Made by a program: the position numbers and the translations under genes
Origin: Patescibacteria group bacterium
GTDB lineage: Bacteria > Patescibacteriota > Patescibacteriia > Patescibacteriales > GWC2-42-12
Direction: 5' to 3'
Length of the DNA stretch: 64,000 nt
NCBI GenBank assembly: GCA_041662965.1
Contig: JBAZRI010000001.1
Coordinates: 227,680-291,679 of the forward strand
Notes under the pieces: generated by a model
Seen by the model: only the letters and a program-made list of their open reading frames with translations
Databases searched by the model: none
What the model was told of the DNA's origin: nothing
In this document: in pieces, positions 6,457 to 57,478 of the stretch
Numbering within the stretch: position 1 is the first letter of the stretch
How the letters are laid out: each line of letters starts with the position of its first letter

Positions 6457-7371
6457 ATGGAATTTAAAGATTATTTAGGGCTAATAAGCAGGAAGAAAAT
6501 GACAATATTTTTAATTGTTATGTTTTTTTTAATATTAGCTTTAATTTTAACGTTCATTCAACCATTAAAATACGGTTCTACTTCCAGAATTATAGTAATT
6601 CAAAATTTTGACGTAGATACCGACCCTTATGCTATTTCCAAGTCTAATGAATATTTAAGCAATATATTAGCTAACGTGGTTACCTCTAGTTCATTTTTTG
6701 ATGATATTTTGGAATCCGGATATCATATTGATAAAAATTATTTTTCAAAGAATAATAATATTAATGGCGAGATGAAGAAATGGCGGGAAACTGTTCAGGC
6801 TAAAGTTGTCGGTGATACCGGTATTATTGAAATTAATGCGTATCATCCGGATAAAAGACAGCTAGACTTGATCGCCTCGGCGGTAAATTATGTTTTGCAA
6901 ACTAAAAACGGGCAATATCATGGCATGGCAAGCAATGTTGTGATTAGAATAATTGATAAGCCGATTATTTCTTTATGGCCGGTTAGACCAAATATTATAT
7001 TTAATCTGGCGCTGGCAATCGTTTTTGGTCTACTTATTTCTTTTTCTTACATTTATTTATTCCCGGAAGATAGGTATAACTTAAGATTATGGTCAAGATC
7101 GAATAGAAAAAAAATAGAAGAGCAAAAAATATCCAGCGTCCAGCCAGCTGATATAAAGAATCAATGGGAAGATTTAGGCGATGCAAAAAAATATACTGAA
7201 GAGAATCTGAATAGCGATGATTTAGAAATACCCGGCGAAGAAAGCGCTAGTTATAAATCTTTATCTTCTGATGATTTGGATAATAATTATGGCGGGAATG
7301 AACCTCAAGATATTTCCATAAAAGGAAGCATAAATAATATTTTCAGAAATCCAAACCGGGACGATTTTTAA
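6457..7371 (+). CDS. Wzz-like polysaccharide chain-length determinant protein with an acidic C-terminal tail
   Basis: N-terminal TM after LISRKKMTIF, a second TM near residue 200 (IIFNLALAIVFGLLISFSYIYLF), and a periplasmic-type middle domain. Low-GC gene. Confidence 0.55.
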   Translation: MEFKDYLGLISRKKMTIFLIVMFFLILALILTFIQPLKYGSTSRIIVIQNFDVDTDPYAISKSNEYLSNILANVVTSSSFFDDILESGYHIDKNYFSKNNNINGEMKKWRETVQAKVVGDTGIIEINAYHPDKRQLDLIASAVNYVLQTKNGQYHGMASNVVIRIIDKPIISLWPVRPNIIFNLALAIVFGLLISFSYIYLFPEDRYNLRLWSRSNRKKIEEQKISSVQPADIKNQWEDLGDAKKYTEENLNSDDLEIPGEESASYKSLSSDDLDNNYGGNEPQDISIKGSINNIFRNPNRDDF

Positions 7372-7548
7372 TAATCGTCTTATTTTGGGAGTCTGAATTT
7401 TTTCCGGTTATTGCCGGCCATTTTCTTCCGGGTGGAAGAAAGTTGGGATTCAAGCTTTGTTCTTTACATTTTTTTTGACTACTGAAGGCAGGCCTTTGAG
7501 CCGGAGCTGGACGAGTTGAAACCCCTAGAGGGAGAAAGGTAGGGAAAG

Positions 7549-8277: not shown

Positions 8278-8281
8278 CAAA

Positions 8282-9256
8282 ATGAAGAAGACACAGAAGA
8301 TTATAGGATTGTTGTTGGCGCTTCTGTTAGTTACAGGTTGCGCCGCGAAGAACATGACGGTAAAAGAGTCGTTTGAATTGCCCCCTAACCCGAATTCGGT
8401 GCTTATTCAGACCGAAAAGGGAAAACAGGCGATTGTTCCAGAAAAAAAGCCTTATGTGGCTTATTTGATTCCTGTGAATCCGATTCTGGAGTTTGCCAGT
8501 AGGTTCGGTATCCGCCAGGATTTGTACCTGGAAGAGAAGGGCAGCAAACCAGAGAAACTTTCCGGCGAGAACTATATTGGCACTAAGATTCCTTGGGGAA
8601 CGAAATTGCATATCCTGGTCACTGACTTCAATAATAAGATTAATATGGACAGAAAAGGGTATATCGGTTCCCGCGACCAAGCAGGCCAACTCCGTCAATA
8701 CGGCCTGGACGGCAAGACCGTCTATGGGCAGTACGAGGAACGCTTTAACTGGGGGAAGATCAAGTCCCTTAAGGAAAGTGGCGTTATCCGGCTGGAAGTT
8801 CAACCCGACGACGCGAATGATAAGTTGATCAGCGAGTCCTTGAATAAAATCGCAGCCCAGGTTGATAAGTTAAATATTCCTAATTTAACAGAGCGGGTGC
8901 TAAGAAAGATTGGTGTTATAACCAGCCAAGATCTGATCATTGGTTTAGGCTTGGTACCCAGAGTAGAGGGGCTAATATTTATGTTCGGAGTACGAATTTT
9001 CCCTGTAATCATGGAGATCGCCGGTGCAGGAGAGCCTAATGGTCCACATCTGGAGCAATCCGTGATCACGAACTACGACCTCGGAAAAACATTAGCCGAG
9101 GAGATTGCGCCGATAAAGAGCATGATGGCCGAGCGCGATGAGGTGCAGGTCAGGGAATATCTCAAGATTCTGGCCGAGCACAATCGTGTGCTTAAGGCTC
9201 AAGAGGCCCTTCAGCAGCAGTACCAGTTACGGCTGGAGGAAAATAAAAAACCTTAA
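8282..9256 (+). CDS. Lipoprotein of unknown function with a C-terminal hydrophobic segment and coiled coil
   Basis: Lipobox LLLVTGC, strong SD AGGAGG 7 nt upstream, 4-nt gap from the upstream gene. Confidence 0.6.
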   Translation: MKKTQKIIGLLLALLLVTGCAAKNMTVKESFELPPNPNSVLIQTEKGKQAIVPEKKPYVAYLIPVNPILEFASRFGIRQDLYLEEKGSKPEKLSGENYIGTKIPWGTKLHILVTDFNNKINMDRKGYIGSRDQAGQLRQYGLDGKTVYGQYEERFNWGKIKSLKESGVIRLEVQPDDANDKLISESLNKIAAQVDKLNIPNLTERVLRKIGVITSQDLIIGLGLVPRVEGLIFMFGVRIFPVIMEIAGAGEPNGPHLEQSVITNYDLGKTLAEEIAPIKSMMAERDEVQVREYLKILAEHNRVLKAQEALQQQYQLRLEENKKP

Positions 9257-9277
9257 TGAAAGATGAGAGGTGGACAG

Positions 9278-10993
9278 ATGAGACGATTGATTTTATTTTT
9301 TGCGGCTCTATTTCTCTGCGCGACCTCTCATCTTGCCCTTGCCGATGAAGGCAAGGTTCAATATGAGCTGGTTACGCCGGAAGTTAGAGCGACGGCTGAA
9401 CACCGAGTAAAATATGGCGAATCGTTATGGGGTATTTTTAAAAAATACTATGGCGAGAATCCATCGGTGAATAAATGCCGCCGTTTGGCAGAATTAAACG
9501 CGATAAAGGATCCGAACCGCATTCGTGCGGGGCAGGTAATCAAGATCTATAAACCCTTAATCATGTTGCAAACTTCGGTCGTGTCTAATCGAACGACTGT
9601 TTCATTGCCAAAAGCCGCGGACAATGCGGTAGCGGCTTTGAAAAAAAGCTTGCGACAAGCGGATATAAAAATGTCCATCCCGGACGACTTAGCTCAAAAG
9701 GTTGTTATAGGGCTAGAGTCTTCTGAAACAATTCATCAATTAAACGGTGAAATTGTGGCCGCGACGACTTATGGCAAGTCGGCCCAAGGATGGACAAAAA
9801 TTGTGGCAAAAGGCGAGGTATCGGGCAAAAGTACAATTACAAGCATTAATGAAAATTACGCTGCTTTAGCAACACTTGCTAAGCAGTGTAAGAACGTCAT
9901 TATCCAGCTTGTGAAAAAAGTGCTTCCGCCGCCGCCACCGCCTAAAGTGGAAATACCGCCGCCACCGCCTAAAGTGGAAATACCGCCGCCTCCGCCGATG
10001 CCGCCGATATTACCACCGCCAGAGTTGTACAGTAAGCCGTTGGAACGGTTTTTAACGGTCTTGTATCGGGAGGCGGTTTGCCCGAACTGCGAGTTTGATT
10101 TAGCAGTCGGCAAGGTGCATCAGGATTATACTGATGACGCGCAAGATTATTCAACCTGGTTATATGCCGCAGTTAGGTGCCAAGTTTGGACCGATAAGGA
10201 TGGCAATATCCACAAAGCCGGCGTATATATTAACGGCAGCAAGTGGGAAGGTGATTGGAAGAAAACGTTTGATTTTGAAGGGAAAATTGAAACCTTCGGG
10301 GTTGAGCATAGAATCCAAACACCGGACAACCAAGAGTATATTTTCCGTATCGGTTATCGCACGCGCCAAGATCTTGGCGCTTCAAGCGATATCTACGGCA
10401 GATATCAAACGGAGACTAACTATAAGGCCCTGGTGTTTGAATCCGAGATCGACGACAATTCCCGTATTAACGAATTGTTTTTCTCAAGATTTAAGGTCGG
10501 CGTAGCCCTGATTACCGAGCTGTCGTCAAGCAGGTATTCAACCTGGACCAATAGTCTAAATGGTCAGGTGATTAACCTTAATGAAAAGCCTGACATAACT
10601 TCCGGGCTGGAATTTAAAAGCGAAATAAGAATTTTTAGTGACAAGCGCAAGCTGGTCACGCTATCGCTTGAGAGTTGGGTTAATTTTCTGTTTGACGGTG
10701 ATTCGGTTTATAAGTTGACCCCATATTTCGGAATCTTGGGCGATTCCTTAAAAATCGGGTATCAAGCTACCGGCCGAAACACCAATGGCAGTCATGCCTT
10801 TGGCAGTGGGTTTGCTTGGCAGCTTAATCTGGGCCAGCTATATGATTATTTAAAGTATAAAGGCTGGGACAGCGGGATTCCCCAACCCGAAATGAACATT
10901 TTCATCAACCCTGATGCCGTGCTTTACGGATCTACATCGGTGGCTGGTGGAGGAGATGTTTTCACTGACCCTGGCGCGTTATTAGAAAATTAA
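9278..10993 (+). CDS. Secreted LysM-domain protein with a poly-proline linker and a beta-rich C-terminal domain
   Basis: Signal peptide MRRLILFFAALFLCATSHLALA. LysM-like HRVKYGESLWGIFKKYYG..LNAIKDPNRIRAGQVIKI. Linker PPPPPPKVEIPPPPPKVEIPPPPP. About 330 aa with alternating aromatic and polar residues. Confidence 0.6.
   Translation: MRRLILFFAALFLCATSHLALADEGKVQYELVTPEVRATAEHRVKYGESLWGIFKKYYGENPSVNKCRRLAELNAIKDPNRIRAGQVIKIYKPLIMLQTSVVSNRTTVSLPKAADNAVAALKKSLRQADIKMSIPDDLAQKVVIGLESSETIHQLNGEIVAATTYGKSAQGWTKIVAKGEVSGKSTITSINENYAALATLAKQCKNVIIQLVKKVLPPPPPPKVEIPPPPPKVEIPPPPPMPPILPPPELYSKPLERFLTVLYREAVCPNCEFDLAVGKVHQDYTDDAQDYSTWLYAAVRCQVWTDKDGNIHKAGVYINGSKWEGDWKKTFDFEGKIETFGVEHRIQTPDNQEYIFRIGYRTRQDLGASSDIYGRYQTETNYKALVFESEIDDNSRINELFFSRFKVGVALITELSSSRYSTWTNSLNGQVINLNEKPDITSGLEFKSEIRIFSDKRKLVTLSLESWVNFLFDGDSVYKLTPYFGILGDSLKIGYQATGRNTNGSHAFGSGFAWQLNLGQLYDYLKYKGWDSGIPQPEMNIFINPDAVLYGSTSVAGGGDVFTDPGALLEN
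9929..9982 (+). repeat. Perfect 2 x 27-bp tandem repeat encoding PPPPPKVEI
   Basis: ccgccgccaccgcctaaagtggaaata occurs twice in tandem inside the LysM protein CDS. Confidence 0.85.
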
Positions 10994-11394
10994 GGCGCAA
11001 GGGTCATAATTTCCGAAAATTATATTGTTGAGTTTCAGAGCTTAGCTGCGTAATTTAAATTACGTGGCGGCCGAGCCGAGTCATTGGTTTAAAATCAAGA
11101 GACGGAGCCGAAACAGTAGACAATATTGTTAAAGGAAATAGTAGCACATTACAATGCATAGAATCAGCTTAATACGCTGTTATAATATATGGTGGCGATT
11201 TCTTTAAAAAGAAATCGCCACCCACCCAATTTCTTTACAAATCAAGAAAAATTATATTTAATAATATAAGCTAGAAGAAAGATAAGTTTAGGTAAATAAT
11301 TTATCTAAAATTACGTTTCTTTTAACAAGCCTAAAAATATTCACGGATGTTCCGTGAAAAAAATAAAGGCAAAATATTCATTAGGGAGGTGCAC

Positions 11395-11982
11395 ATGAAA
11401 AGATTATTGATAATTGCAGTAATGTTGGCAGTCATCGCCGTTGGTGCAAACCTGGCAATGGCGGCCGAGTTAAGGGATCTTGACAAGGAAGGAAACGGTT
11501 TTATTATTGAGGCAACTGCGACGGGTTTTACCGTTACGGTTATTGACAGGTTTACAAAATTGTCAGCACCATTTACGGGGCCGGATGCTAGTAGTTGGAT
11601 CCAGGAAAAAGGGGGCGTATCGCTGATCTCCACGGCCGGTTGGGTCGTGGATGGTAAAAAGGGCAACGCCAAGAGTGCGTCCTATGATGTCAAGGCAGGG
11701 GAAGGCAAGGCGGTTTATGTTTTTGCGGTCAACCCTTCAGTGGTTGGTAAACCGGTTAATGTTGCCGTGAGCAACGGGTCGGTAAACGACCAGCGGTCAA
11801 TCTGGCTGTGTCCGCCCTGGACCAGCCAAGTATTCTTCGCACGGGCGAACAACGCCCACCCGGACGGCGAGCACATGATATTCTTCCAGCTGGAAGGGGA
11901 AATCGTGCGCTCCGTCGTTGATGAGGCAAAAAAGGGAGGTTGGATTCCGGCGGCCGTTTACCATGCCGCCAAAATGAAATAA
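11395..11982 (+). CDS. Secreted hypothetical protein
   Basis: SD GGGAGGT upstream of the ATG at 11395, signal peptide MKRLLIIAVMLAVIAVGANLAMA. No family recognised. Confidence 0.5.
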   Translation: MKRLLIIAVMLAVIAVGANLAMAAELRDLDKEGNGFIIEATATGFTVTVIDRFTKLSAPFTGPDASSWIQEKGGVSLISTAGWVVDGKKGNAKSASYDVKAGEGKAVYVFAVNPSVVGKPVNVAVSNGSVNDQRSIWLCPPWTSQVFFARANNAHPDGEHMIFFQLEGEIVRSVVDEAKKGGWIPAAVYHAAKMK

Positions 11983-12007
11983 ATCGCTTTGCGAAGCAAA
12001 GCCAAAT

Positions 12008-12044
12008 GGGTAACCTGCAGTCACGCGGGTTACCCTCTTTTTTT
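12008..12044. terminator. Bidirectional hairpin terminator between convergent genes
   Basis: GGGTAACC-tgcagtcacgcg-GGTTACCC followed by tcttttttt. Confidence 0.7.
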
Positions 12045-13428
12045 AGGAGACTTCTTTTAAATTCGCGTAAGCTATGACGGCGCCGGTGTAGCTCCAAATC
12101 AAAAATTGCAAAGGCATGGTGCGAAGAATATTGTCGCCTAATGATATAGCTAAGATGCCCAGCCAAAGAATAATTAAACTAAAGAGATAATTTCTAATAT
12201 ATTTGCTGTCCGTTTTATAAAGTTTATAGATTAAAATAAATAATGATATAAATATGCTTATATATATTGCCAGGCCGATAATGCCCAACTCTATCAGGAG
12301 GCGGAGGTAATCATTATGAGCCTGGAGCGATTCATAAGTTTTTGCTTCATCATTATATTTTAAATTTATATTTTTAAAACTGCCTAAACCGTAGCCGAGA
12401 ACCGGGGCGTTCGTAAAGGCCGGCAAGGTAGTCTCAATAATTTTAAGCCGGGTAATAAGGGAACTATTATATTTTGGGTTAAAAACGTCGTTGACGCGTT
12501 CATTTATCGCGGGAGTGAAAAGATAAGCTAGAAAAATTAAAGCAGTAATAGCGACTAGAAATTTACGGCTTTTAAATAAGCCGAAGACTAAAGACATTGC
12601 TAAAAGACCAATCCAGGCGCCGCGCGTTAAAGTTATAAGCGCAATAAATAAATTTAAAAGCAGTAAAACAGCCAAGGGAATTTTTTTGCTTTTATTAATT
12701 TTATTGGACAATAAAGCATAAATAATAGGCAGAGTAGATATGAGATAAAAGGCTAAAGTAGCCGGATGCGAGAAGGTGCCATCAACCCTGTAAGCCATTA
12801 TAGTTTTATCCCACCACCCGCTAACGGTAAAATATTGATAAAAAGAGATTAAGCAGGGAAATAGAGAGCCGAATAATATTGCCGCGATAAGTTGATAAAA
12901 ATTATTTTTATTTTTTACCGCCAATATGGAATAAATAAATAAAATAAAAATAATAATGATCCGGGATAATTCTATGGCGGATGATGTTTTATCTATTGAA
13001 TATATGACGCTTAGAGCGGAGGTTATTAAAAACAAAAAAAATAAAGTTATTACTTTGTATTTTTTTATTAACTCGATTGTTGGCTTAATGTTTCTTAATA
13101 AAAATATACCGCCGAAGGCTAAAACCATCAAATCTATAACAAAGTTAAAATTAAAGGAAATATTATTAAAATTGCCCACGATTATCGTTTCCGATATGTC
13201 TCTTAAACTCGGCGTGATTAAAAAAATGAAGAATAAAAAATATATTGGTTTATATAAAAAAAGAGGAGATAGGCCAAGCAGCAACCCAAGCATTAATTTC
13301 ATATAAATAGTTGCATCAAGCGAGAGAACGGCAAAAAACAATATTAAGGCTAATATTAAATAACTTATTGCTAGCACGCCTGGTTGCCCTTGACTTTTTT
13401 TATAAAATATATTATTATGTAAGGTCAT
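12043..13428 (-). CDS. O-antigen ligase / polymerase-like (Wzy_C family) membrane protein
   Basis: About 11 TM segments, the LTRGAWIGLLAMSL motif, and a large loop with SLQAHNDYLRLLIELG. Confidence 0.7.
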   Translation of the reverse strand: MTLHNNIFYKKSQGQPGVLAISYLILALILFFAVLSLDATIYMKLMLGLLLGLSPLFLYKPIYFLFFIFLITPSLRDISETIIVGNFNNISFNFNFVIDLMVLAFGGIFLLRNIKPTIELIKKYKVITLFFLFLITSALSVIYSIDKTSSAIELSRIIIIFILFIYSILAVKNKNNFYQLIAAILFGSLFPCLISFYQYFTVSGWWDKTIMAYRVDGTFSHPATLAFYLISTLPIIYALLSNKINKSKKIPLAVLLLLNLFIALITLTRGAWIGLLAMSLVFGLFKSRKFLVAITALIFLAYLFTPAINERVNDVFNPKYNSSLITRLKIIETTLPAFTNAPVLGYGLGSFKNINLKYNDEAKTYESLQAHNDYLRLLIELGIIGLAIYISIFISLFILIYKLYKTDSKYIRNYLFSLIILWLGILAISLGDNILRTMPLQFLIWSYTGAVIAYANLKEVS

Positions 13429-13433
13429 AAAAA

Positions 13434-13441
13434 TGTATAAT
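13434..13441 (+). promoter_or_regulatory. Extended -10 box (TGtTATAAT) 7 nt upstream of the ATG at 13449 (leaderless-type spacing)
   Basis: tgtataat then taaatag then ATG. An upstream TTGACT (13390) with a 17-nt spacer to TATTAT is also present. Confidence 0.4.
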
Positions 13442-13448
13442 TAAATAG

Positions 13449-14453
13449 ATGAAGAAACACCAATACAATCAATATTACTCCAAAATCTCGATTATTAGAA
13501 GGCATATTAAGACTAGTCTGCCATATTTAAATATTAGCAAATTTTTAAATATTTTGCTATCAAAAATAGGAGAGGCTATAGGTTTGGAAATAATCAGGCC
13601 CAAACCTTTTTTTATAAAGATTGAGCCGACAAATAAATGTAATCTACGTTGCCCCGGCTGCCGGCAAGCGCTTGGGGAAAAAGATCATATGCCAGGCGGC
13701 TATTTCGGCGATATGGATTTTTCCGCATTCGCTAAAATAATTGATGAGTTGAAAAAGTATTTGGTAAAAGTCTCTCTTTATTTTGAGGGCGAATCTCTAA
13801 TCAACGGGCAAATCAGTCAGATGGTTAAATATTTATCCGATAGAAATATTGGCAGTGTTATTAGCACTAATTTTAATTATCTGCCGGATAAATTAGCCGA
13901 AGAGCTGGTCGCCAATAGATTAACTCATTTGATAGTATGTCTTGACGGCTATAACGAAGAAACATATCAGAGATACAGGCGAGGAGGCAGTTTTCAAAAA
14001 GTTGTTGAGAATATAAAAAAAATTCAGATAGAAAAAAATAAACAAAAATCAAAATATCCGTTGGTTGAAATACAAACAATCAATTTTTCATATTATTCAA
14101 GCGAAGAGAAAGAGAAGATTAAATTACTGGCCGAAAAATTGGGCGCGGATTATTTCACTTTTAAAGATGATCTAAATTCTTATTATAATAATCCGCGGCC
14201 GGCGGGTAAAAGATGCTTTTGGTTGTATGGCCACCCGGCATTCCGTTGGGACGGCGAAGTCCAGCCATGCTGCTATTATTATAATAAGGAAGATAATAAT
14301 TTTGGGAATATTAAGGAGAGTAGCGTAAGACAAATATGGAATAATAAAAAATACCGCGCCGCCAGAAGGTATTTTAAGAACGGCGAGAAAGATAAATCAT
14401 TAAATATCCGTTGTTACTATTGCGATTTTTTTAAATATGAAAATAATAAATAA
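13449..14453 (+). CDS. Radical SAM protein with a Cys-rich SPASM/twitch-like C-terminus (paralog 1 of 3)
   Basis: CNLRCPGC (CX3CX2C) cluster motif. C-terminal GEVQPCCYYY ... NIRCYYCDFF. Confidence 0.75.
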   Translation: MKKHQYNQYYSKISIIRRHIKTSLPYLNISKFLNILLSKIGEAIGLEIIRPKPFFIKIEPTNKCNLRCPGCRQALGEKDHMPGGYFGDMDFSAFAKIIDELKKYLVKVSLYFEGESLINGQISQMVKYLSDRNIGSVISTNFNYLPDKLAEELVANRLTHLIVCLDGYNEETYQRYRRGGSFQKVVENIKKIQIEKNKQKSKYPLVEIQTINFSYYSSEEKEKIKLLAEKLGADYFTFKDDLNSYYNNPRPAGKRCFWLYGHPAFRWDGEVQPCCYYYNKEDNNFGNIKESSVRQIWNNKKYRAARRYFKNGEKDKSLNIRCYYCDFFKYENNK

Positions 14454-15426
14454 ACAACCTCGCACCGCGACTTTAGCCGTAACTTATAGATGCAATTCAC
14501 GTTGCCGGATGTGCAATATCTGGCGAAGTAAAATTGCCGACAGCCTAAAGCCGGCTGACTATTTAAAATTGCCGAAAAGTTTAAATGATATAAATATTAC
14601 CGGCGGCGAACCATTTTTAAGGGATGATTTATTAGAGATATTGGATAGTATTTTTAAAAGATGCAACCCTGAAAGATTGGTTATTTCATCCAACGGTTTT
14701 TTAACCGACCGGATAGTCGGTCTAGCTAAAATAATCTTAAAGCGTAGCTATGCCGACCGCGTTATTATCGCTTTGTCTCTGGACGCTCTAGGCAAAAAGC
14801 ATAATGAAATCCGGGGAGTCGTTAATGCTTTTGAACTGGTTATTAACACAATAACCGAATTAAAAAGAATCGGCTTTAATAATATCGGCCTAGGTTTTAC
14901 TTTTATCTCCGGGAATGAAGATCAGTATTTACCCGTCTATGAATTCGCCAAGAAGAATAACTTAAATTTCGGCGCGACTATCGCCCATAACGCGGAAAAT
15001 TATTTTTCTACGGACAATAATGAAAAACCTGATTATAAAATAATTAAAAAGCAGACTGATTATTATATTGGTGAAAAAATAGAATCGTTTAAAAAAAATG
15101 AGCTGGGCAAATGCTATTATATGCATGGCTTAGCTTATTATGCCAGGACGGGGAAAGCGTTAGTTAATTGTGACGCTATGCGCGGGTCATTTTTCATAGA
15201 TCCGCGGGGCAATATTTATCCCTGTAATATTTTAACCGATATCGCCGGCAATTTACTTGAGGCAGATTTTAAGAATATTTGGCAAAGCCGGGCGGCTGAT
15301 AAAATTAGATGTAAAACAAAAAATTGTCCGACTGCCTGCTGGATGGTCTGCACGGCCAAGCCGGGGATAAAAAAACACTGGCTAAAAACAGGGCTTTGGT
15401 TAATTAAACGTAAATTGAAGCAATAA
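14437..15426 (+). CDS. Radical SAM / SPASM-domain protein (paralog 2 of 3)
   Basis: CNSRCRMC cluster motif, GGEPFL. C-terminal IDPRGNIYPC ... CKTKNCPTACWMVC. Overlaps the upstream gene by 17 nt. Confidence 0.75.
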   Translation: MKIINKQPRTATLAVTYRCNSRCRMCNIWRSKIADSLKPADYLKLPKSLNDINITGGEPFLRDDLLEILDSIFKRCNPERLVISSNGFLTDRIVGLAKIILKRSYADRVIIALSLDALGKKHNEIRGVVNAFELVINTITELKRIGFNNIGLGFTFISGNEDQYLPVYEFAKKNNLNFGATIAHNAENYFSTDNNEKPDYKIIKKQTDYYIGEKIESFKKNELGKCYYMHGLAYYARTGKALVNCDAMRGSFFIDPRGNIYPCNILTDIAGNLLEADFKNIWQSRAADKIRCKTKNCPTACWMVCTAKPGIKKHWLKTGLWLIKRKLKQ

Positions 15427-15429
15427 AAT

Positions 15430-16533
15430 ATGTTTAATAAACATAAAACAATTAAATACGGTAAAATTGCTTTAGCCAAATTAAAGAATATATTTGTTGG
15501 CAATATTTATTTAAGGACAGGATTATTTATGCCCCGGCCGACTAAATTATATTATTTGATGTCAAATAAATGTAATTTTCGCTGTCAAATGTGCCCGCAA
15601 TGGAAAATCGGAGAAGGTGAAAATATTAGTGGTTATATTAGCGAAAACAGAATTAAAGAGATAATTAAAGAAATGGCAAAATTAAAAATTTTTGAATTTG
15701 GAATTTCCGGCGGCGAACCTTTAATTTTTAAAGACAAATTATTAAGGCTGTTAAAATATGCTAATGAGCAAGGTCTCTATACCCATTTCGCGACCAACGG
15801 CAGCTTATTAACCGAAGAATTTTTAGAAAAATATGATAACTTCGGCGGCGGCCATATTTCACTGTCTTTGGACGCGGGCGAAATTTTACATGACAGCTTG
15901 CGCGGATTCCCCGGCGCTTATAAAAACGCCATGGCAGTGATGAAAATATCCAGCGGTAATAAATATAAAAATATAAATTTAAAAATTAACATTACGTTGA
16001 CTAATGAAAATTTAGATGAAATAAGCCCCTTGCTCATGAAAGCAAAAGAAATTGGCGCGATGGTTTTTATCCAGCCTTATGATGCCTACGATTACGGCAA
16101 TAAAAATATAGATTATAAAGAAAATAATTATCCATTATGGGTTAAAAAAGAAAATTATTTTAAATTAAAAAAATTAATCAGTAAATTATTAGAATTTAAA
16201 AGAAAAAATCCGGAGATATTATTAAACGACGAAAAACACTTGAAAGTTTTTTATAGTTATTTTACCGATAGCAATTATTCAGCCAAGTGCTATGCCGCCA
16301 TAGACCAAGTAACTATAGATCCTTTCGGCAATGTGATATTATGTAAATTCGGAAAAATTGTTAATTTGCGTGACACCAGCTTAAAGGATTATATATATAG
16401 CAAAAAAAGAAAAGATATCGTTAAGGCCAGCCTGCAATGCGGTGAAGGTTGTTTGCTTGGTTGTATGTTTAAGCCAAGTCTTATAGATTTAATCAGACAC
16501 GGAAGCAAGCAGTTCTTTAAATTAATAAAATAA
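15430..16533 (+). CDS. Radical SAM / SPASM-like protein (paralog 3 of 3)
   Basis: CNFRCQMC cluster motif, SGGEPLI. C-terminal IDPFGNVILC ... LQCGEGCLLGC. 3-nt gap from the upstream gene. Confidence 0.75.
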   Translation: MFNKHKTIKYGKIALAKLKNIFVGNIYLRTGLFMPRPTKLYYLMSNKCNFRCQMCPQWKIGEGENISGYISENRIKEIIKEMAKLKIFEFGISGGEPLIFKDKLLRLLKYANEQGLYTHFATNGSLLTEEFLEKYDNFGGGHISLSLDAGEILHDSLRGFPGAYKNAMAVMKISSGNKYKNINLKINITLTNENLDEISPLLMKAKEIGAMVFIQPYDAYDYGNKNIDYKENNYPLWVKKENYFKLKKLISKLLEFKRKNPEILLNDEKHLKVFYSYFTDSNYSAKCYAAIDQVTIDPFGNVILCKFGKIVNLRDTSLKDYIYSKKRKDIVKASLQCGEGCLLGCMFKPSLIDLIRHGSKQFFKLIK

Positions 16534-16595
16534 AAAAAGCGGACAGGGACAAGAATTTTTCTTGTGTATCCGCAATTGAGTGCCTACTTGTTGGT

Positions 16596-17090
16596 TTATT
16601 CGTTTAAAAAACCAGTAGGATCAGTACAAACTTTATAGTTTTGGGGAGATTGCAGTTTCTTATTAAGTAAATAATTTTTGCCGCCTTCTTCTCCCCTGAG
16701 GATCACGATAGCATCTGTTACTTTGTAGCCTTGCCATTTATTCTCCGGTCGTGGCGAATAGTGTGTGTAGTATATAGCATCTACTATATCTGCTATATCT
16801 ACAAATTCAATTTCCTCTGTCTGCTGGCCCTGGTAGCGAACTATAGTATATTCGATGTCATGATATTTTTGCATACTGTCTGTTTTCCACTCAGCAGGTT
16901 CCTGGTCGCAGGCTACTCCACAAACAACGACATAATAGTCTGGTTTAGGGAAATAAGAAAGCATTTCTGAGGTACTGGCGCCCTTGTTAACTTTTTTTAT
17001 CTCTTCTGAAGCGTAGGAAATTGAGCACACAACACTTACAAAGAGAACAATCGCCAAAAAAATACTTACGTTACGGATTTTCTTAAACAT
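16596..17090 (-). CDS. Secreted hypothetical protein
   Basis: SD GGGAGG 7 nt upstream, signal peptide MFKKIRNVSIFLAIVLFVSVVCSISYA. Composition differs from the neighbouring low-GC genes. Confidence 0.5.
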   Translation of the reverse strand: MFKKIRNVSIFLAIVLFVSVVCSISYASEEIKKVNKGASTSEMLSYFPKPDYYVVVCGVACDQEPAEWKTDSMQKYHDIEYTIVRYQGQQTEEIEFVDIADIVDAIYYTHYSPRPENKWQGYKVTDAIVILRGEEGGKNYLLNKKLQSPQNYKVCTDPTGFLNE

Positions 17091-17187
17091 GGTTTTTCCT
17101 CCCTAGAATAGGTTAAATATGAATTTTAAAAAAGCAATGAATATTATTGCGAATTGCAATCTTAATTTATATCATATATTGAGTAAT

Positions 17188-18411
17188 ATGTCAAGAGTAT
17201 TAAAAATTCTACAAATAAATAAATTTTATTATTTAAAAGGCGGCAGCGAGCGGCATATGTTTGATATAACTCAAATATTAGAACAAAAAGGCCATGCCGT
17301 AATACCTTTTTCAATGCAAGATCCGAGAAATAAAACCTCTGAATACGATAAATATTTTATAAGCGAAGTAGATTTGAATAAATTCAGCCTGAAAAATATT
17401 GTAAAGTTTTTTTGGAATTACGACGCGGTTAGAAAGCTGGAAATATTAATTAGAAATGAGAAGCCCGATATCGCCCACTTGCATAATATCGCGCACCAGT
17501 TTAGCCCGGCGATTATATATGTTTTAAAAAAGCATAAAATACCCGTTGTCCAGACTTTGCATGATTATAAATTAATTTGCCCCAATTATAAGCTATTTAA
17601 TAAAAATAAGGCTTGCCTGAAATGTTTAAACGGAAAATATTATAATTGCTTTTTGGGCGAGTGCGTGAAAAATTCTTACTTAAAAAGTTTTTTGGCTATG
17701 CTCGAAGCGTATTTATATAAATGGTTAAGAACATATGCTTTGGTTGATTTATTTATCGCTCCCAGCCAGTTTATGAAAGATAAATGCGTTGAATCAGGAA
17801 TCAAGGAAGAAAAAATTAAAATATTAAGACATTTTGTAGATGATAAATATTTTAGTATTAATAGCGAGGTCGGAGATTATCTATTGTATTTCGGCCGCTT
17901 ATCTGATGAAAAAGGAGTTGATATTTTATTTAGGGCCATGCGGGAAACTAATAGCGGGCAGAGATTAAAAATTGTCGGCGCCGGCCCGGATTATGAAAAG
18001 TATAAATTAAAAATTTTGGATAGCCGACTCTCGGAAAAAGTTGAGTTATGCGGGCCTAAATATGATGATGAGCTTATTGGAATCGTTAAACAGGCTAAAG
18101 CCATTATTATGCCGTCAGTTTGGCCGGAGAATATGCCATATAGCCTTTTGGAAGCTATGGCTATGGGAAAAGTAGTTATCGCTTCACGGATCGGCGGCAT
18201 GGCAGAGGTTATAAATGATAAGGCCAACGGATTTTTATTCAGGGCGGGTGGCGAAAAAGAATTAGCCTCGATTATGAACAATTTGGGTAATTGCAATCTA
18301 GAGAAAATCGGTGAAATGGCGAGAGAATCAGCCAGTCGCAATAAAAAAGACGAATACTGCGAAAGTCTTTTGCGTATTTATCAAGGAGCGGAAAGGCAGG
18401 CGCGTTTATGA
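17188..18411 (+). CDS. Glycosyltransferase family 4 (GT-B fold)
   Basis: EAMAMGKVVIASRIGGMAEVINDKANGFLF motif. Start moved to MSRVLKILQINKFYY. TATATT box 7 nt upstream of that ATG. Confidence 0.8.
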   Translation: MSRVLKILQINKFYYLKGGSERHMFDITQILEQKGHAVIPFSMQDPRNKTSEYDKYFISEVDLNKFSLKNIVKFFWNYDAVRKLEILIRNEKPDIAHLHNIAHQFSPAIIYVLKKHKIPVVQTLHDYKLICPNYKLFNKNKACLKCLNGKYYNCFLGECVKNSYLKSFLAMLEAYLYKWLRTYALVDLFIAPSQFMKDKCVESGIKEEKIKILRHFVDDKYFSINSEVGDYLLYFGRLSDEKGVDILFRAMRETNSGQRLKIVGAGPDYEKYKLKILDSRLSEKVELCGPKYDDELIGIVKQAKAIIMPSVWPENMPYSLLEAMAMGKVVIASRIGGMAEVINDKANGFLFRAGGEKELASIMNNLGNCNLEKIGEMARESASRNKKDEYCESLLRIYQGAERQARL

Positions 18412-20441
18412 TAATTAACAATCATAAAAAAATATTAATTTTTTTTCTTAGTTTATTATTAAACCTTGGTTTGTTTAGCGATACGGCATCGGCGGAAATT
18501 AAAAGTGATTATCCCAAAATCGCCAATTATTATCTTCAGCCATGGATGCCGGCTGAAGACGCGGACGAATTATATAAATACGATTTAATTATTCTTGACG
18601 CGGACGTTGATACGGTAAATCCGGAGCTTATTCCCGGTATAAAAAAGAAAAACCCAAAAGCTATAATACTTGCTTATATTCCTGCCCAGGGAGTTAATAC
18701 CGAGGACTTAAATTCATGGGCAAAACTAAGAAGAGAAGAATATAAAATAATTAAAGACAATGATTGGTGGTTAAAAGACAGCCGGGGCGATATAATTAAT
18801 TTTTCAAATATTTGGCCGAATATTAAGTTTGTTGATCCGGGCAAAGGCTGGGCTGATTATTTATCCACGGCCGCGAAAAATGAATTATCCGACAACACTT
18901 ACTGGGATGGAATTTTTTATGACATGATGTTTGCTAATTTGGGATGGCTGAATAATGGAGATATAGATATAAATCAGGACGGTAAGAAGGATGATATAAG
19001 CTTGGTGAATCAGTATTGGCAAAAGCAGATGAATGATTTGCTTAAAAAAACCAAAGATAAGATCGGCGGCAAATTGCTTTTGGCGAATGTTGATATAGTC
19101 GATAAGTATGCCGGGTTGCTTAACGGCACGATGATGGAAAATTTTCCGGCTGCTTGGCTGGGTAAAAACGGCTGGTCGATATTAACTGATCAATATGTAA
19201 ATAATCTGCCTTTGATTAATCAATTTCCGAATATTTATATTATTAATTCAAATTTGAATAATGCCGAAGTGATGAGCGATTTTTCCGCCATGCGCTTCGG
19301 TTTAACCAGCACTCTGCTCGGCGGCGGTTATTATTCTTTTGATTACGGCGATCAGGATCATTCTCAAAATTGGTGGTACGATGAGTATGATGTAAATTTA
19401 GGCATATCGATGTCGAACCCCTACAACCTGCTGAACAGAAGCAGCCAGGCCGTGAAACTTGGGCTATGGCGCAGGGATTTTGAATTCGGTGTTTCAATAG
19501 TAAATTCAACCAGCGAGAAGCAAAGGTATATTTTTTTAAAAGAGGAATTTGAGAAAATTAACGGCGCCCAGGACAGAAGAGTAAATAATGGAACTAAAGT
19601 TAATTATATAGACCTAGAGCCTAAAGACGGCGTTGTATTATTGAAAATTGATAATATGATTAAGGAAAACAGCTTCAACAACGGCAGTTTTGTCCGTGTT
19701 TTTAACCAAGCCGGAGATCAGACAAGAAACGGTTTTTTTTCATATCTTGATAGTTATTCCGGCAGCGTTACTGTTTTAAATAGCGATATTGATAATGACG
19801 GCAGAATTGAGACCCTGGTCAACGGCCAAGGCGTGATTACAATATACAAAGACGGGAAAGCAGTTTCAAATTTTTGCGTTTATGATAGAAAATTTAATGG
19901 GGATGTTTCATTCGCCGTCGGCGATCTTAACGGCGACGGCACCAAAGAGATTATCACCGGAGCCGGACCGGGCGGCGGCCCTCAGGTGCGGATATTTTCA
20001 AAGGACGGCCGGCCTCTAACCGGCGGATTTTTCGCCTATGATAAAAATTTCCGCGGCGGAGTGAATGTGGCGGTTATAGATCTTAACGGCGACGGCACCA
20101 AAGAGATTATCACCGGAGCCGGACCGGGCGGCGGTCCTCAGGTGCGGGTATTTTCAAAGGACGGCCGGCCTCTAAACGGCGGATTTTTCGCTTATGATAA
20201 AAATTTCCGCGGCGGAGTAGATTTGGCAGTCGGTGATCTTGATGGCGACGGCACCAAAGAGATTATTGCCGGAGCCGGGCCGGGAGGCGCGCCTGAAGTA
20301 AAAATTTTTAGCAAAGACGGTAAATTATCAAGCGCTTTTATGGCTTATAACCACAACGATAAAAATGGTATAATGGTAATGTCTAATGATATCAATAGTG
20401 ATAAGGTGGATGAAATTTTGGTAAGTTTAAGAGGGAATTAA
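18408..20441 (+). CDS. Secreted protein: N-terminal putative glycoside-hydrolase-like domain plus C-terminal FG-GAP/VCBS-type repeats
   Basis: Signal peptide. YPKIANYYL..DLIILDADV region (weak GHL-type resemblance). Repeats GDLNGDGTKEIITGAGPGGGPQVR.FSKDGRPL.GGFFAYDKNFRGG. Confidence 0.6.
   Translation: MIINNHKKILIFFLSLLLNLGLFSDTASAEIKSDYPKIANYYLQPWMPAEDADELYKYDLIILDADVDTVNPELIPGIKKKNPKAIILAYIPAQGVNTEDLNSWAKLRREEYKIIKDNDWWLKDSRGDIINFSNIWPNIKFVDPGKGWADYLSTAAKNELSDNTYWDGIFYDMMFANLGWLNNGDIDINQDGKKDDISLVNQYWQKQMNDLLKKTKDKIGGKLLLANVDIVDKYAGLLNGTMMENFPAAWLGKNGWSILTDQYVNNLPLINQFPNIYIINSNLNNAEVMSDFSAMRFGLTSTLLGGGYYSFDYGDQDHSQNWWYDEYDVNLGISMSNPYNLLNRSSQAVKLGLWRRDFEFGVSIVNSTSEKQRYIFLKEEFEKINGAQDRRVNNGTKVNYIDLEPKDGVVLLKIDNMIKENSFNNGSFVRVFNQAGDQTRNGFFSYLDSYSGSVTVLNSDIDNDGRIETLVNGQGVITIYKDGKAVSNFCVYDRKFNGDVSFAVGDLNGDGTKEIITGAGPGGGPQVRIFSKDGRPLTGGFFAYDKNFRGGVNVAVIDLNGDGTKEIITGAGPGGGPQVRVFSKDGRPLNGGFFAYDKNFRGGVDLAVGDLDGDGTKEIIAGAGPGGAPEVKIFSKDGKLSSAFMAYNHNDKNGIMVMSNDINSDKVDEILVSLRGN
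19923..20390 (+). repeat. Three tandem 156-bp near-identical coding repeats (52-aa FG-GAP-like units)
   Basis: gatcttaacggcgacggcaccaaagagattatcaccggagcc recurs at 19923, 20079 and 20235. The first two copies are almost identical at the DNA level. Confidence 0.85.
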
Positions 20442-20460
20442 TTATATAAATTTTAAATAT

Positions 20461-22326: not shown

Positions 22327-22498
22327 TTTTATTATGGTAAGTTCCTTAGTTAAAAGCATGAAACATTAACTTATATAAAAATACATTTTATTGTTGAATA
22401 TTAGTCAATAAATTAAGAAATCATAGAAAAAATAGAAATAATTTCTGCCAGCGGTCTATAATGTATCGCAACAAGTGAATAAACAATTATTTAATATT

Positions 22499-23806
22499 AT
22501 GAACACAAATATGAACATAAATAAGCTAAAAATTACATCAACAACGGTCATTATAATAATATCCATAGCCGCGATATTATTTTATGCTAATCTTTCTCTT
22601 GGCAAAGCTCGGCCATATTATTCCGGCCAAGCCATTCGTTTTCAGAATAAAATAGTATTCGCCACTGTGAACACAGGAGAGTTTGAATTATTCGTTTTAG
22701 ATAATAACAAAATAATTAAAACCGCTTCTATTTCTAACGCTTACGGATATGACTCGGGAAATAAAGCTTTTGATAGCCAAGTAATGAAACAGGAGGCCGA
22801 TAGGCTGTATGCTTATTTGGTTAACGGGGCATATTTATATAAATATGATATTACCGATCCTTTTTCGCCTAAGCTAGAAACAAGGGTTAAAGATAATTCC
22901 TGGGACTGGTTTACTAGTTTAAGCAAGGCGGGAAACTATATAATTTCCAAGGGCACTAAGGGTATTAAAGCTTGGAACAGCAATTTAGATATTATTAACG
23001 CGTATAATATAATCAATAGTGGTTATTCGGATAATTTGAGATTATCGGAGACAATGAAATATATTTATAATATTGACGGCGATAAATTGCAGATCTATTC
23101 ATCAGAAAAAAGAGATTTGTTAAAAGAGATAAAGTTTTTTTTAAACGAAGAGCATGTCAGAAAATTATATAATGACGAAAAGGCAGGCTTAGTTTATATG
23201 GTTGATGACCAAGCGTTAAGGGCTTATGATTTAGGCGGTGTTCTAAAGAAAGAATTTAAGCATATATCTAAACTAGGGTATGATGTCGCCGCTTTAGATA
23301 ATAGCAAATATTTATACTTTTCCGATGGCGTCGGAATCGTTAAGGCGAAAAAGAGCGATTTAAAACCGGTTGATTGGATTTTTACTACAAAACTGGAGAT
23401 TGAAAACGGCTGGGCCATGGGCCTGGATGTAGCCATGGATAAAGACGGAGAAAAAGTTTTTGTTTTTAACGAGTCAAGCATATTAGTTTTAGATGAGGAT
23501 CTAAAGTTAGTGGATTATTATTTGGCGAGTGGAGATAGCAGCAAGCCAATTGAATCTTTATATTTGAATTATGATAAAAAAAGCAGTTCGCCAGGGGAAT
23601 ATATTGCTTTATCCGGCGGCGGATATGGGCTGAATGAGCCGTTGCAGATAATATTTGCCGGAACCGAAATTAATGCCACGAGTAACAAAAATGGAAAATT
23701 TAAGGAAATAATTAAAGCGCCGTCAGTTTTACCTGGCAATGTGCAAATAACAGTGAATGGAGTTAATTCCGGCCGAACTTATAGCATCAGTTTTGTAATT
23801 AATTAA
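22499..23806 (+). CDS. Membrane-anchored beta-propeller-like surface protein with a C-terminal Ig/IPT-like domain
   Basis: N-terminal anchor TTVIIIISIAAILFY. The tracked ORF starts at a GTG (22475); the in-frame ATG at 22499 is preferred. No family firmly recognised. Confidence 0.4.
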   Translation: MNTNMNINKLKITSTTVIIIISIAAILFYANLSLGKARPYYSGQAIRFQNKIVFATVNTGEFELFVLDNNKIIKTASISNAYGYDSGNKAFDSQVMKQEADRLYAYLVNGAYLYKYDITDPFSPKLETRVKDNSWDWFTSLSKAGNYIISKGTKGIKAWNSNLDIINAYNIINSGYSDNLRLSETMKYIYNIDGDKLQIYSSEKRDLLKEIKFFLNEEHVRKLYNDEKAGLVYMVDDQALRAYDLGGVLKKEFKHISKLGYDVAALDNSKYLYFSDGVGIVKAKKSDLKPVDWIFTTKLEIENGWAMGLDVAMDKDGEKVFVFNESSILVLDEDLKLVDYYLASGDSSKPIESLYLNYDKKSSSPGEYIALSGGGYGLNEPLQIIFAGTEINATSNKNGKFKEIIKAPSVLPGNVQITVNGVNSGRTYSISFVIN

Positions 23807-23808
23807 TT

Positions 23809-24987
23809 ATGAAAATATATTTTATCGGTCAAAAAGGCATACCGTCAAAATTCGGCGGAGTGGAAAAGCACGTGGAAGAGCTGTCCTCGCGCCTGGTTAA
23901 GGCCGGGCATGAAGTTTTCGTTTATACTCGGCCCAACTATACCGATAAAAATTTGAAAAAATATCGGGGAGTTAATTTAATCAGTTTGCCTGCTATCGCG
24001 ACTAAACATCTGGACGCCATTACTCATACTTTCCGCGCTTGCTTGGATTTAACAAGGCGCGAGGCAGATATTATTCATTTTCATTCCATCGGCCCGTCAT
24101 CTTTAATTTGGCTGGCTAAATTATTAAAGCCGGGCGTGCCGGTTATTTTTACCTTTCATACAAAATGCTATGAGCATAAGAAATGGGGGGCATTAGCTAA
24201 GGCGTGCTTAAAAATAGGCGAGGCAATCGCCTGCCATTTAGCGGATAAGGTAATAGTGATTTCGCCGTCGCTGGCCGAATACACCTTGGCTAAATATAAA
24301 GTTAGCGCGGCTTACGCTCCTAATGGAGTCAGCCTGCCTAGAATAGTTAAAGCTGATAAAATAAAAAAATGGGGGTTGAGAGAAGGCAATTATATTTTAA
24401 CGGTCACTAGATTAGTCGGCCATAAGGGCGTGCAGTATTTAATCGGCGCTTATAAAAATTTGAAGACTAAAAAGAAATTAGTCATAGTGGGCGACGGCGC
24501 TTATACGGATAATTATGTTAAAGAATTAAAAGCGGCGGCTCAAGGCAACAAAAATATAATTTTTACCGGCAATCAAACCGGCCCGGAGCTGGCAGAGTTA
24601 TTTTCTAACGCTTATCTTTTCGTCCAGCCTTCCGAGTCGGAAGGTTTATCTATCGCTCTGCTTGAAGCTATGGCCTATAAAAATTGCGCGCTAGTCAGCG
24701 ATATTATAGAAAATAAATATGTGGTCGCGGATTGCGGGTTTATTTTTAAAAATAAAAATATAAAAAGCTTGCGACTGAAATTATCGTATTTGCTGAAACA
24801 GCCTAAGTTGGCGGATAAGTGCGGCCAATCAGCCAGAGCAAGAGTCAGCGGAAATTTTAATTGGTCTAAGATAGTTTTTTCCATAATAAAAATCTATCGT
24901 CAATCTTCAGCCGAAAAGAATAAGCAGCCGAAATATTTTTTTAAATTAAAGTTAGCCAGGAGAATAGCAACTATGTTTATGCTATAA
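23809..24987 (+). CDS. Glycosyltransferase family 4
   Basis: KFGGVEKHVEELS N-terminal motif and ESEGLSIALLEAMAYKNCALVSD motif. Confidence 0.8.
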   Translation: MKIYFIGQKGIPSKFGGVEKHVEELSSRLVKAGHEVFVYTRPNYTDKNLKKYRGVNLISLPAIATKHLDAITHTFRACLDLTRREADIIHFHSIGPSSLIWLAKLLKPGVPVIFTFHTKCYEHKKWGALAKACLKIGEAIACHLADKVIVISPSLAEYTLAKYKVSAAYAPNGVSLPRIVKADKIKKWGLREGNYILTVTRLVGHKGVQYLIGAYKNLKTKKKLVIVGDGAYTDNYVKELKAAAQGNKNIIFTGNQTGPELAELFSNAYLFVQPSESEGLSIALLEAMAYKNCALVSDIIENKYVVADCGFIFKNKNIKSLRLKLSYLLKQPKLADKCGQSARARVSGNFNWSKIVFSIIKIYRQSSAEKNKQPKYFFKLKLARRIATMFML

Positions 24988-57362: not shown

Positions 57363-57421
57363 TCTGTTTAATATTAGTTAAAGTTATTTTAAATAACCGA
57401 TGGAAATAAGGAGGGTAATTT

Positions 57422-57478
57422 ATGAGGATATGGCGGCTCTTTTCAATCGTAGTTATTATTTCTTGGCTAATAGGCTAA
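57422..57478 (+). CDS. Possible 18-aa hydrophobic micro-ORF (MRIWRLFSIVVIISWLIG)
   Basis: Strong SD AAGGAGGG 6 nt upstream. Not in the supplied track. Hand-translated. Confidence 0.2.
   Translation: MRIWRLFSIVVIISWLIG

Follow-up and report, generated by a model that had tools for sequence, protein, structure and literature searches.

The DNA analyzed here (the window) is a 64,000-nucleotide stretch from a Patescibacteria group bacterium (assembly GCA_041662965.1, contig JBAZRI010000001.1, positions 227,680 to 291,679), and our subject is a set of three tandem genes in it that encode radical S-adenosylmethionine (SAM) proteins, which we call rSAM-A, rSAM-B and rSAM-C (Table 1). An initial annotation had described three consecutive open reading frames (ORFs), each with a CX3CX2C motif, coupled by a 17-nt overlap and a 3-nt gap. 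Its coordinates are right, and the sequence itself places the overlap at the A/B junction and the gap at the B/C junction. The neighbors also proved to be as claimed: the divergent ligase-like gene, separated from rSAM-A by a 20-nt spacer, encodes a Wzy_C-family protein, the convergent 164-amino acid (aa) ORF lies beyond rSAM-C, and a glycosyltransferase (GT) gene of family GT4 follows. A promoter-like site, which is a pattern match only, precedes the rSAM-A start codon by 30 nt and so overlaps the 5' part of the Wzy_C gene.

The trio belongs to a larger glycan locus. Several secreted-protein genes and a Wzz-like gene lie upstream; downstream, the start of a GHL15/FG-GAP gene overlaps the stop of the first GT4 gene (GT4a) by 4 nt, a DUF11 protein gene also follows GT4a, and after a second GT4 gene (GT4b) comes, directly downstream of the glycan locus, the mraZ-rsmH-penicillin-binding protein-mur division cluster. 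One cluster thus holds the marks of a Wzy-dependent surface-glycan pathway, namely Wzy_C (83 bits), Wzz (30 bits) and two GT4 genes. Pfam detected neither a Wzx flippase (Polysacc_synt) nor an initiating transferase (Bac_transf) at 6457-24987. The GC content is 0.33-0.35 at 12001-18000, which spans the Wzy_C, radical SAM and GT4 genes, versus 0.45-0.46 at 8001-12000, and such a low-GC island fits the pattern of horizontally exchanged glycan loci.

Table 1. Position and supporting matches of the genes and sites discussed in the text (window coordinates)
Feature	Position	Strand	Basis
Wzz-like chain-length determinant (polysaccharide co-polymerase) gene	6457..7371	+	Pfam Wzz 30 bits, GNVR; upstream boundary of the conserved locus
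Wzy_C-family membrane protein (O-antigen polymerase/ligase-like)	12043..13428	-	PF04932 83 bits
Promoter-like site, TTGACT-17-TATTAT	13390..13418	+	consensus scan 10/12; pattern match only
rSAM-A, 334 aa, CNLRCPGC	13449..14453	+	ORF list, Pfam
rSAM-B, 329 aa, CNSRCRMC	14437..15426	+	ORF list, Pfam
rSAM-C, 367 aa, CNFRCQMC	15430..16533	+	ORF list, Pfam
Convergent 164-aa ORF, signal-peptide-like N-terminus	16596..17090	-	no Pfam, NCBIfam or PADLOC match
GT4 glycosyltransferase, GT4a	17119..18411	+	Pfam Glycos_transf_1 and Glyco_transf_4
Secreted GHL15 glycosyl-hydrolase-like and FG-GAP repeat protein	18408..20441	+	PF14885 101 bits, FG-GAP repeats
443-aa conserved membrane-anchored extracytoplasmic protein	22475..23806	+	no Pfam match; hydrophobic N-terminal anchor
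GT4 with N-terminal DUF1972, GT4b, GacB-like architecture	23809..24987	+	Glycos_transf_1 108 bits, DUF1972 31.8 bits
Second locus, Wzy_C	55860-57362	-	
Second locus, GT2	57861-58649	-	
Second locus, GT4	58613-59803	-	
Second locus, Wzx/Polysacc_synt	59849-61291	-	

All three proteins exceed the gathering threshold of the Pfam Radical_SAM family (PF04055, 29.5 bits), with 50.7, 56.9 and 74.9 bits for A, B and C, respectively. The CX3CX2C cysteines (C64/C68/C71 in A, C19/C23/C26 in B, C48/C52/C55 in C) are invariant or at least 90% conserved in the alignments of all three families, and the GGE-type motif reads EGE in A and GGE in B and C. A and B also score above the Pfam SPASM threshold of 21.5 bits (53.3 and 35.2 bits), and C falls below it (16.8 bits). 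SPASM domains (PF13186 / TIGR04085) hold two auxiliary clusters and carry a seven-Cys motif, CX9-15GX4C-gap-CX2CX5CX3C-gap-C; this motif was found in none of A, B and C, and its CX12GX4C half was found in all three. The auxiliary cysteines, which are invariant in the alignments of A and B, differ in pattern. Those of A (C256, C274(/C275), C322 and C325; CX12GX4C(C)...CX2C) follow the twitch pattern of BtrN, and with matches to BtrN in sequence and in fold A is predicted to be of the twitch type with a single auxiliary [4Fe-4S] cluster. B (C245, C263, C297, C301, C305) and C (C287, C305, C337, C341, C345) share the pattern CX12GX4C...CX3CX3C, five conserved cysteines that are ambiguous as to twitch type and would make these proteins an abbreviated SPASM type. 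The earlier label 'SPASM-like' has to be qualified: the C-terminal domains are Cys-rich, with twitch-like or abbreviated sets in place of the seven-Cys motif.

Pairwise BLASTP identity within the trio is 21-26%, and therefore A, B and C are three old subfamilies; they are paralogs, as first described, at the level of the superfamily but not as recent duplicates. They also differ ahead of the core, where A has a conserved extension of ~55 residues with two helices (residues 12-44 in the model), C has about 40 residues and B has 18 before its first cysteine. The public gene calls are N-terminally short (289 aa for A, P0001; 305 aa for B, P0087), and that for B begins at Met25, within CNSRCRMC, with the loss of two of the three cluster cysteines. 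Homolog alignments favor the longer N-terminal forms of A and B.

None of the three proteins reaches a curated NCBIfam cut-off. The best matches are W_rSAM_matur for A (97.9 bits versus 380) and TIGR03961 for B and C (82.1 and 96.8 bits versus 306), and AhbD, NirJ, MoaA, PqqE, MftC, HpnH, Tes, the W-cofactor maturase, the PTO1314 family and viperin are below cut-off for all three, so that classification by profile hidden Markov models, a check suggested with the initial annotation, leads to no characterized housekeeping family. It could nevertheless be argued that these are cofactor enzymes (for heme, of the AhbD-NirJ type, for molybdenum cofactor, of the MoaA type, for pyrroloquinoline quinone (PQQ) or mycofactocin, or a tungsten-cofactor maturase) or viperin-like antiviral proteins that merely lie beside a glycan locus, as the top-named NCBIfam and PADLOC matches are W_rSAM_matur (98 bits), AhbD (86 bits) and pVip (72 bits). 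We consider this very improbable given that the matches are three- to eight-fold under the cut-off or cover the shared radical SAM core only, that partner genes of those pathways were not found nearby and that the linkage to GT4 and Wzy_C genes is kept across phyla. A role in antiviral defense was rejected in its own right, the PADLOC pVip matches being partial and limited to the radical SAM core.

Searches of Protein Data Bank (PDB) sequences (phmmer for A) produced weak matches only. For A the sole match was the auxiliary-cluster region of BtrN (1e-6); the others were SkfB for B, and SkfB, CteB, MoaA, BlsE (2e-5), PqqE and viperins for C. With AlphaFold models of A and B (predicted local distance difference test scores of 89 and 93), Foldseek ranked BtrN first for A, followed by SuiB, BlsE, SkfB and DesII, and returned SkfB, SuiB, CteB, anSME, MoaA and BlsE for B, with the best TM-score, 0.66, to BlsE. 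These models place A and B in the SPASM/twitch clan and fix no substrate class. When C was compared with PLSDB plasmids, only PqqE and MftC matched (23-28% identity), and no close cultured relatives were found.

BtrN is 2-deoxy-scyllo-inosamine dehydrogenase, the founding twitch radical SAM enzyme, and its substrate is a carbohydrate-type aminocyclitol. Its layout is that of rSAM-A: the core is followed by a short C-terminal domain in which CX(n)C...CX2C cysteines ligate a single auxiliary cluster. However, identity is ~19%, A has its two-helix N-terminal extension and the extra conserved C275, and BtrN belongs to an aminoglycoside cluster whereas rSAM-A lies in a polysaccharide locus. DesII and BlsE are radical SAM enzymes that act on nucleotide- or nucleoside-linked sugars, and both are among the top 20 fold matches of A. 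They show that substrates of the nucleoside diphosphate (NDP)-sugar type can be handled by the fold. DesII and BlsE differ from the trio in sequence (13-17% identity, below any family threshold) and in their antibiotic-pathway contexts.

Comparative evidence comes from family B. A protein search with B gave 2210 homologs, and at least 524 matches, counted with one genome per GTDB species, were confirmed in more than 15 phyla and archaea. The best 80 matches come from Krumholzibacteriota, Patescibacteria, Chloroflexota, Planctomycetota, Actinomycetota, Gemmatimonadota, Nitrospirota, Acidobacteriota, Latescibacterota, Sumerlaeota, Verrucomicrobiota, Ignavibacteria, Gastranaerophilales, Thermoplasmata and other Euryarchaeota. 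ORFs from all loci were clustered and the cluster representatives annotated with Pfam; adjacency was counted in 63 loci, about 17 others having no B ORF in the cluster owing to the clustering threshold. A GT4 gene is present in 72 of 88 loci. In this genome scan it directly adjoins B in 38 of the 63 loci and lies no more than four genes away in 48, and the distance from the B stop to a downstream GT4 gene is 20 nt or less, or an overlap, in 23 of 31 cases (a 4-nt overlap in 8 of those). The flanking GT4 genes are of the same two types as in the window: the GT4a type is mostly upstream of B (in 16 loci, versus 14 with it downstream), and GT4b, the DUF1972-like type, is mostly downstream, directly so in 17 loci. 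Homologs of GT4a and GT4b are present in 54 and 70, respectively, of the 87 related loci that were checked.

Other recurrent neighbors of B are Bac_transf, DegT aminotransferase, GFO/IDH oxidoreductase, hexapeptide acetyltransferase, RmlC, RmlD, NAD-epimerase/dehydratase, nucleotidyltransferase, Wzx, Wzy_C, GT2, Methyltransf_11 and B12-radical SAM genes. Family B is a widespread glycan-locus enzyme family, nearly always found in polysaccharide loci and often coupled translationally to a GT4 gene. Separately, we observed that rSAM-B is accompanied in L009, L013, L016, L053, L068 and L086 by as many as three genes per locus for B12-binding radical SAM proteins, putative methylases, which suggests a wider radical chemistry in the glycan loci of other phyla.

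Co-occurrence with the ligase and GT genes, which the initial annotation had singled out for comparison, extends to A and C, and the arrangement is kept in other genomes. Orthologs of A form about 28 clusters at 48-74% identity; the metagenome scan for A loci aligned close orthologs only. Among loci with visible flanks, the divergent Wzy_C|A pair is present in L002-L008, L088, L090, L092, L097 and L098. About ten other Patescibacteria and metagenome loci have A beside both Wzy_C and B. A B ortholog follows A in L002, L006-L008, L088-L090, L092, L093 and L096, and in L004 a B-family gene lies one GT4 gene further along from A. The full A-B-C trio is present in at least four other loci: on a 275-kb Patescibacteria contig (L006/L008/L092), where the downstream order is the same as in the window through mraZ, as well as in L096 and on a JGI 6473-bp contig. 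More broadly, the order Wzy_C(-)|A-B-(C)-GT4-...-GT4(DUF1972) is syntenic in L002-L008, L088-L098 and the JGI contig at 48-63% identity. Wzz-like gene homologs occupy the same relative position in L002-L008, L049 and L064, the 443-aa protein has homologs in 9 syntenic loci, and a GHL15/FG-GAP gene recurs beside rSAM-B or GT4 in 12 loci. In L001, a 4-Mb genome, a single locus combines A and B with three GT4 genes, Wzx, Wzy_C and an initiating transferase of the Bac_transf family.

C is an optional third member, with about 60 homologs, mostly in Patescibacteria; it is co-located with B in L006/L008, L049, L064, L092, L096 and the JGI 6473-bp contig, and in L049 and L064 the B-C pair stands without A, behind a GT2 gene. 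Four small-genome metagenome-assembled genomes (MAGs; L034, L041, L042, L078) have a minimal arrangement, Wzy_C(-)|rSAM-B-GHL15/FG-GAP, with no adjoining GT4 gene, and therefore B is not strictly tied to a GT4 neighbor. We also observed that several MAGs titled 'uncultured Gammaproteobacteria' carry the Patescibacteria-type locus (L034, L041, L042, L046, L049, L074, L078); one of these is an 886-kb complete chromosome (OZ246416.1), and the Gammaproteobacteria labels look wrong.

Cultured bacteria offer further context. A tblastn search against plasmids identified B orthologs (35-36% identity, 97% coverage) in two of them, both within annotated polysaccharide loci. In Segatella copri DSM 18205 (WP_050758626) the gene order is glycosyltransferase, radical SAM, GT4, nucleotidyltransferase, and in Pseudobutyrivibrio xylanivorans (pNP95; WP_151625889) the ortholog shares an exopolysaccharide (EPS) locus with an O-antigen ligase, GT4 and GT2 genes and pyruvyl transferases. 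For A, plasmid pBHWA1 of Brachyspira hyodysenteriae carries five tandem, same-strand, full-length A-like radical SAM/SPASM genes (25-29% identity, E 1e-17 to 1e-30) and two further radical SAM genes nearby, the array lying among GT, RfbC, RfbF, NAD-epimerase and rhamnan-synthesis/lipooligosaccharide (LOS) genes. Among described glycan loci with tandem radical SAM genes, this array comes nearest to the trio, and in a microarray study part of the block was found in virulent strains but not in those with reduced pathogenic potential (PMC4267127). It differs from the trio in being on a spirochaete plasmid, in having no members of the B or C families and in that its function is known only as a virulence correlation. 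An A-like match in Azospirillum (H38) was rejected as an ortholog, with 26% identity and a curli/unknown context that is not a glycan locus.

An exhaustive HMMER search found 393 clusters (50% identity) related to A at E <= 1e-30. Among the relatives an A-like radical SAM domain is fused to Methyltransf_11 three times, and one A-like domain is fused to GT2, with another radical SAM gene following; L002 has a stand-alone gene for Methyltransf_11 positioned between its A and B genes. It is speculation, but methylation of a keto- or hydroxy-sugar intermediate would be in keeping with the methyltransferase fusions.

The initial annotation had left two options for the trio, radical chemistry on a surface glycan or lipid, or modification of a secreted protein such as the convergent 164-aa ORF. 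The second can be widened to peptides made on ribosomes and modified after translation (RiPPs): the enzymes might cross-link or epimerize either a ribosomal peptide or a protein that is secreted or displayed at the surface (a pilin, the DUF11 protein or the 164-aa ORF), and the GTs would then glycosylate the product. Most characterized SPASM enzymes are indeed peptide maturases, SkfB, SuiB and CteB are top fold matches, the Wzy_C family includes protein O-oligosaccharyltransferases, and the best NCBIfam match of the Wzy_C gene here is a putative O-glycosylation ligase (66 bits versus a cut-off of 188). SkfB, SuiB, CteB, PqqE, MftC and anSME share with the trio the SPASM/twitch-clan fold and are its top fold or profile matches. 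However, we found that: (i) there is no precursor-peptide gene beside the trio, where the intergenic gaps are 20, 62 and 28 nt, and any ORF of 20-60 aa in the flanks is either a shadow frame of a gene or separated from the trio by two genes and a terminator-like hairpin, in agreement with the initial annotation, which had noted no short precursor ORF; (ii) no conserved small gene is called in the syntenic loci; (iii) Pfam gives no PqqD or RiPP recognition element (RRE) match in A, B or C, no PqqD-like gene in the locus, no peptidase or ABC exporter in the locus and no sulfatase among the 59 window ORFs scanned; (iv) only about 40-55 residues precede the core in A and C, and the B Cys motif starts at residue 19; and (v) the neighborhoods of B across phyla consist of nucleotide-sugar and GT genes. 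The trio thus differs from the RiPP maturases and anSME in its locus, which has no precursor peptide, RRE/PqqD, peptidase, exporter or sulfatase, and in having no seven-Cys motif. As for the proposed protein substrates, homologs of the 164-aa ORF and of the DUF11 protein are absent from all 87 related loci, and in L006, the closest syntenic locus, GT4 directly follows C with no 164-aa ORF between. The 164-aa ORF is therefore a local, lineage-specific insertion rather than a conserved substrate and is probably not part of the system, and the claim that it is modified by the trio is not supported. We regard peptide or protein maturation as quite improbable.

We lean, by a modest preference, toward the possibility that A, B and C are sugar-tailoring radical SAM enzymes of a Wzy-dependent cell-surface glycan pathway; for any single reaction type our confidence is much lower. 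The option of glycan or lipid chemistry is supported by the comparative context, as A, B and C travel with Wzy_C, Wzz-like, two types of GT4 and GHL15 genes, and by the GT2 and methyltransferase fusions. The module made up of Wzy_C, Wzz-like, the two GT4 genes, GHL15 and the trio contains no other sugar-modifying enzyme and no peptide substrate. In the scheme that we propose, each enzyme would reductively cleave SAM to a 5'-deoxyadenosyl radical, which would abstract a hydrogen from an unactivated C-H of a sugar, either on an undecaprenyl-diphosphate-linked oligosaccharide built by the GT4 enzymes or on a nucleotide-sugar donor. The sugar radical could then end up as an epimer or as a keto, deoxy, ring-contracted or branched sugar, with the auxiliary [4Fe-4S] cluster taking or giving an electron, as in BtrN and anSME. 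The coupled GT4 would extend the modified residue, the product would be flipped, and Wzy_C would polymerize or ligate it. Three different enzymes would imply three different modifications or sites.

There is precedent for a radical SAM enzyme acting on a sugar that a GT has installed. Cds is proposed to convert glucose to calditol on glycerol dialkyl glycerol tetraether (GDGT) lipids and HpnJ to convert glucosamine to a cyclitol ether on hopanoids, and PtmC is a further example (PMC13459092, PMC9092360). In such pathways the radical SAM enzyme has a GT as its partner and works on the hexose that has been installed on a membrane-bound intermediate, and the tight coupling of rSAM-B and GT4 fits this pairing pattern; the likeness is one of pathway logic only. 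The acceptors are GDGT lipids, hopanoids or an intermediate bound to acyl carrier protein and not a Wzy-pathway glycan. With regard to the stage of action, GacB, a DUF1972 GT4, transfers rhamnose to N-acetylglucosamine (GlcNAc)-PP-undecaprenol, and DUF1972 has been proposed to bind the lipid-linked acceptor (PMC6802508). The likeness of GT4b to GacB would thus imply that the module acts early, on a lipid-linked intermediate.

The main rival to sugar tailoring, though itself unlikely, is that the enzymes act on a lipid, either a membrane glycolipid or the polyprenyl-phosphate carrier, which they would for example cross-link, saturate or adenosylate in the manner of Tes, Gms and HpnH. In line with this, A and B have weak NCBIfam matches to HpnH (40 bits) and Tes (34 bits), respectively, GDGT-MAS is among the fold matches of B, helical extensions ahead of the core are conserved at the N-termini of A and C, and the linker of one GT2-A fusion is hydrophobic. 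Patescibacteria also have unusual lipid needs. However, the HpnH and Tes matches are far under the family cut-offs, the A and B terminal helices are not notably amphipathic, the closest and widest linkage is to GT4 and nucleotide-sugar genes rather than to lipid-synthesis genes, and the methyltransferase and GT2 fusions point to sugar tailoring. A related idea, that of membrane-binding helices, was dropped after an Eisenberg hydrophobic-moment scan ranked the A and B terminal helices low; only the C-terminus of C stood out.

Several points weigh against sugar tailoring as we propose it. The RiPP maturases SuiB, SkfB and CteB, as well as anSME, score similarly to the sugar enzymes in the fold searches, and therefore structure cannot discriminate between these substrate classes. 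The hydrophobic-moment scan did not flag the A and B terminal helices as membrane-binding. Both the type of reaction and the stage at which the substrate is met (NDP-sugar or lipid-linked) are guesses, and the gene context would also fit action on a polyprenyl carrier or on a glycosylated protein encoded elsewhere. In short, the whole basis of the proposal is gene context and remote homology.

Other features of the window bear on glycan and envelope genes or on radical SAM genes in general. A second Wzy-type glycan locus (55860-61291, minus strand) has no radical SAM genes. Wall-polymer linkage-unit genes are found elsewhere: a WecG/TagA-family GT gene (42075-42815), a partial MraY/WecA-family transferase gene at the window edge (30-791) and a CDP-alcohol phosphatidyltransferase gene (4321-4914). 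Upstream of the trio, a 576-aa secreted LysM protein (9263-10993) has proline-rich repeats, PPPPPKVEIPPPPPKVEIPPPPP, and weak homologs at the same position in L006, L008, L088 and L092. The 353-nt gap between the LysM gene and a gene for a 211-aa secreted protein contains a perfect hairpin (11191-11222) with a 14-bp stem and T-runs on both strands that resembles a bidirectional terminator. Following GT4b, a 124-aa ORF (24995-25369) matches positions 26-85 only of the TsaD profile and may be TsaB-like or truncated; a similar short ORF is kept 5' of mraZ in the Patescibacteria loci L002, L006, L046, L069 and L087. Two other radical SAM genes are present. One (4964-6301) matches UPF0004 and Radical_SAM and is a methylthiotransferase of the MiaB/RimO type, and the other (40964-41980, minus strand, 338 aa) lies 5.6 kb from a LigB/Memo-family gene (34598-35386, minus strand), with which it may form a split AmmeMemoRadiSam-like set.

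The radical SAM superfamily, its sugar-acting members and the presence of radical SAM genes in glycan loci (Brachyspira) were already known. No member of families A, B and C matches a curated family or a characterized protein. Our literature search on radical SAM/SPASM genes in capsule, EPS and LOS loci found no functional study, and only the Brachyspira microarray paper was relevant. We view the trio not as a categorically new system but as an enzymology lead that is well supported, widespread and testable. Many rare sugars of surface polysaccharides have an unexplained biosynthesis, one example being the carbocyclic sugar caryose in lipopolysaccharide (PMC9092360). Characterizing one member would give a function to a large class of proteins annotated simply as 'radical SAM protein' and might uncover glycan chemistry that is new. 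Cultured entry points are provided by Segatella copri DSM 18205, Pseudobutyrivibrio xylanivorans MA3014 and Brachyspira hyodysenteriae WA1, the Brachyspira genes being ones that correlate with colonization and virulence.

A more far-reaching possibility, which we put forward tentatively and with some doubt, is that GT4a-rSAM-B-GT4b(DUF1972) is an ancient module, shared by many phyla and some archaea, that places a radical-made non-canonical residue close to the reducing end when surface glycans are lipid-linked. This residue might be a ring-contracted or carbocyclic, C-branched, keto or epimerized sugar. In genome-reduced Patescibacteria up to three radical SAM enzymes might then replace the missing nucleotide-sugar tailoring, with editing taking place after glycosyl transfer. 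If this is true, the module would represent a new class of post-glycosylation glycan-editing enzymes. For the Patescibacteria themselves, enzymes of this kind could explain how the cell surface varies despite there being very few sugar-nucleotide enzymes.

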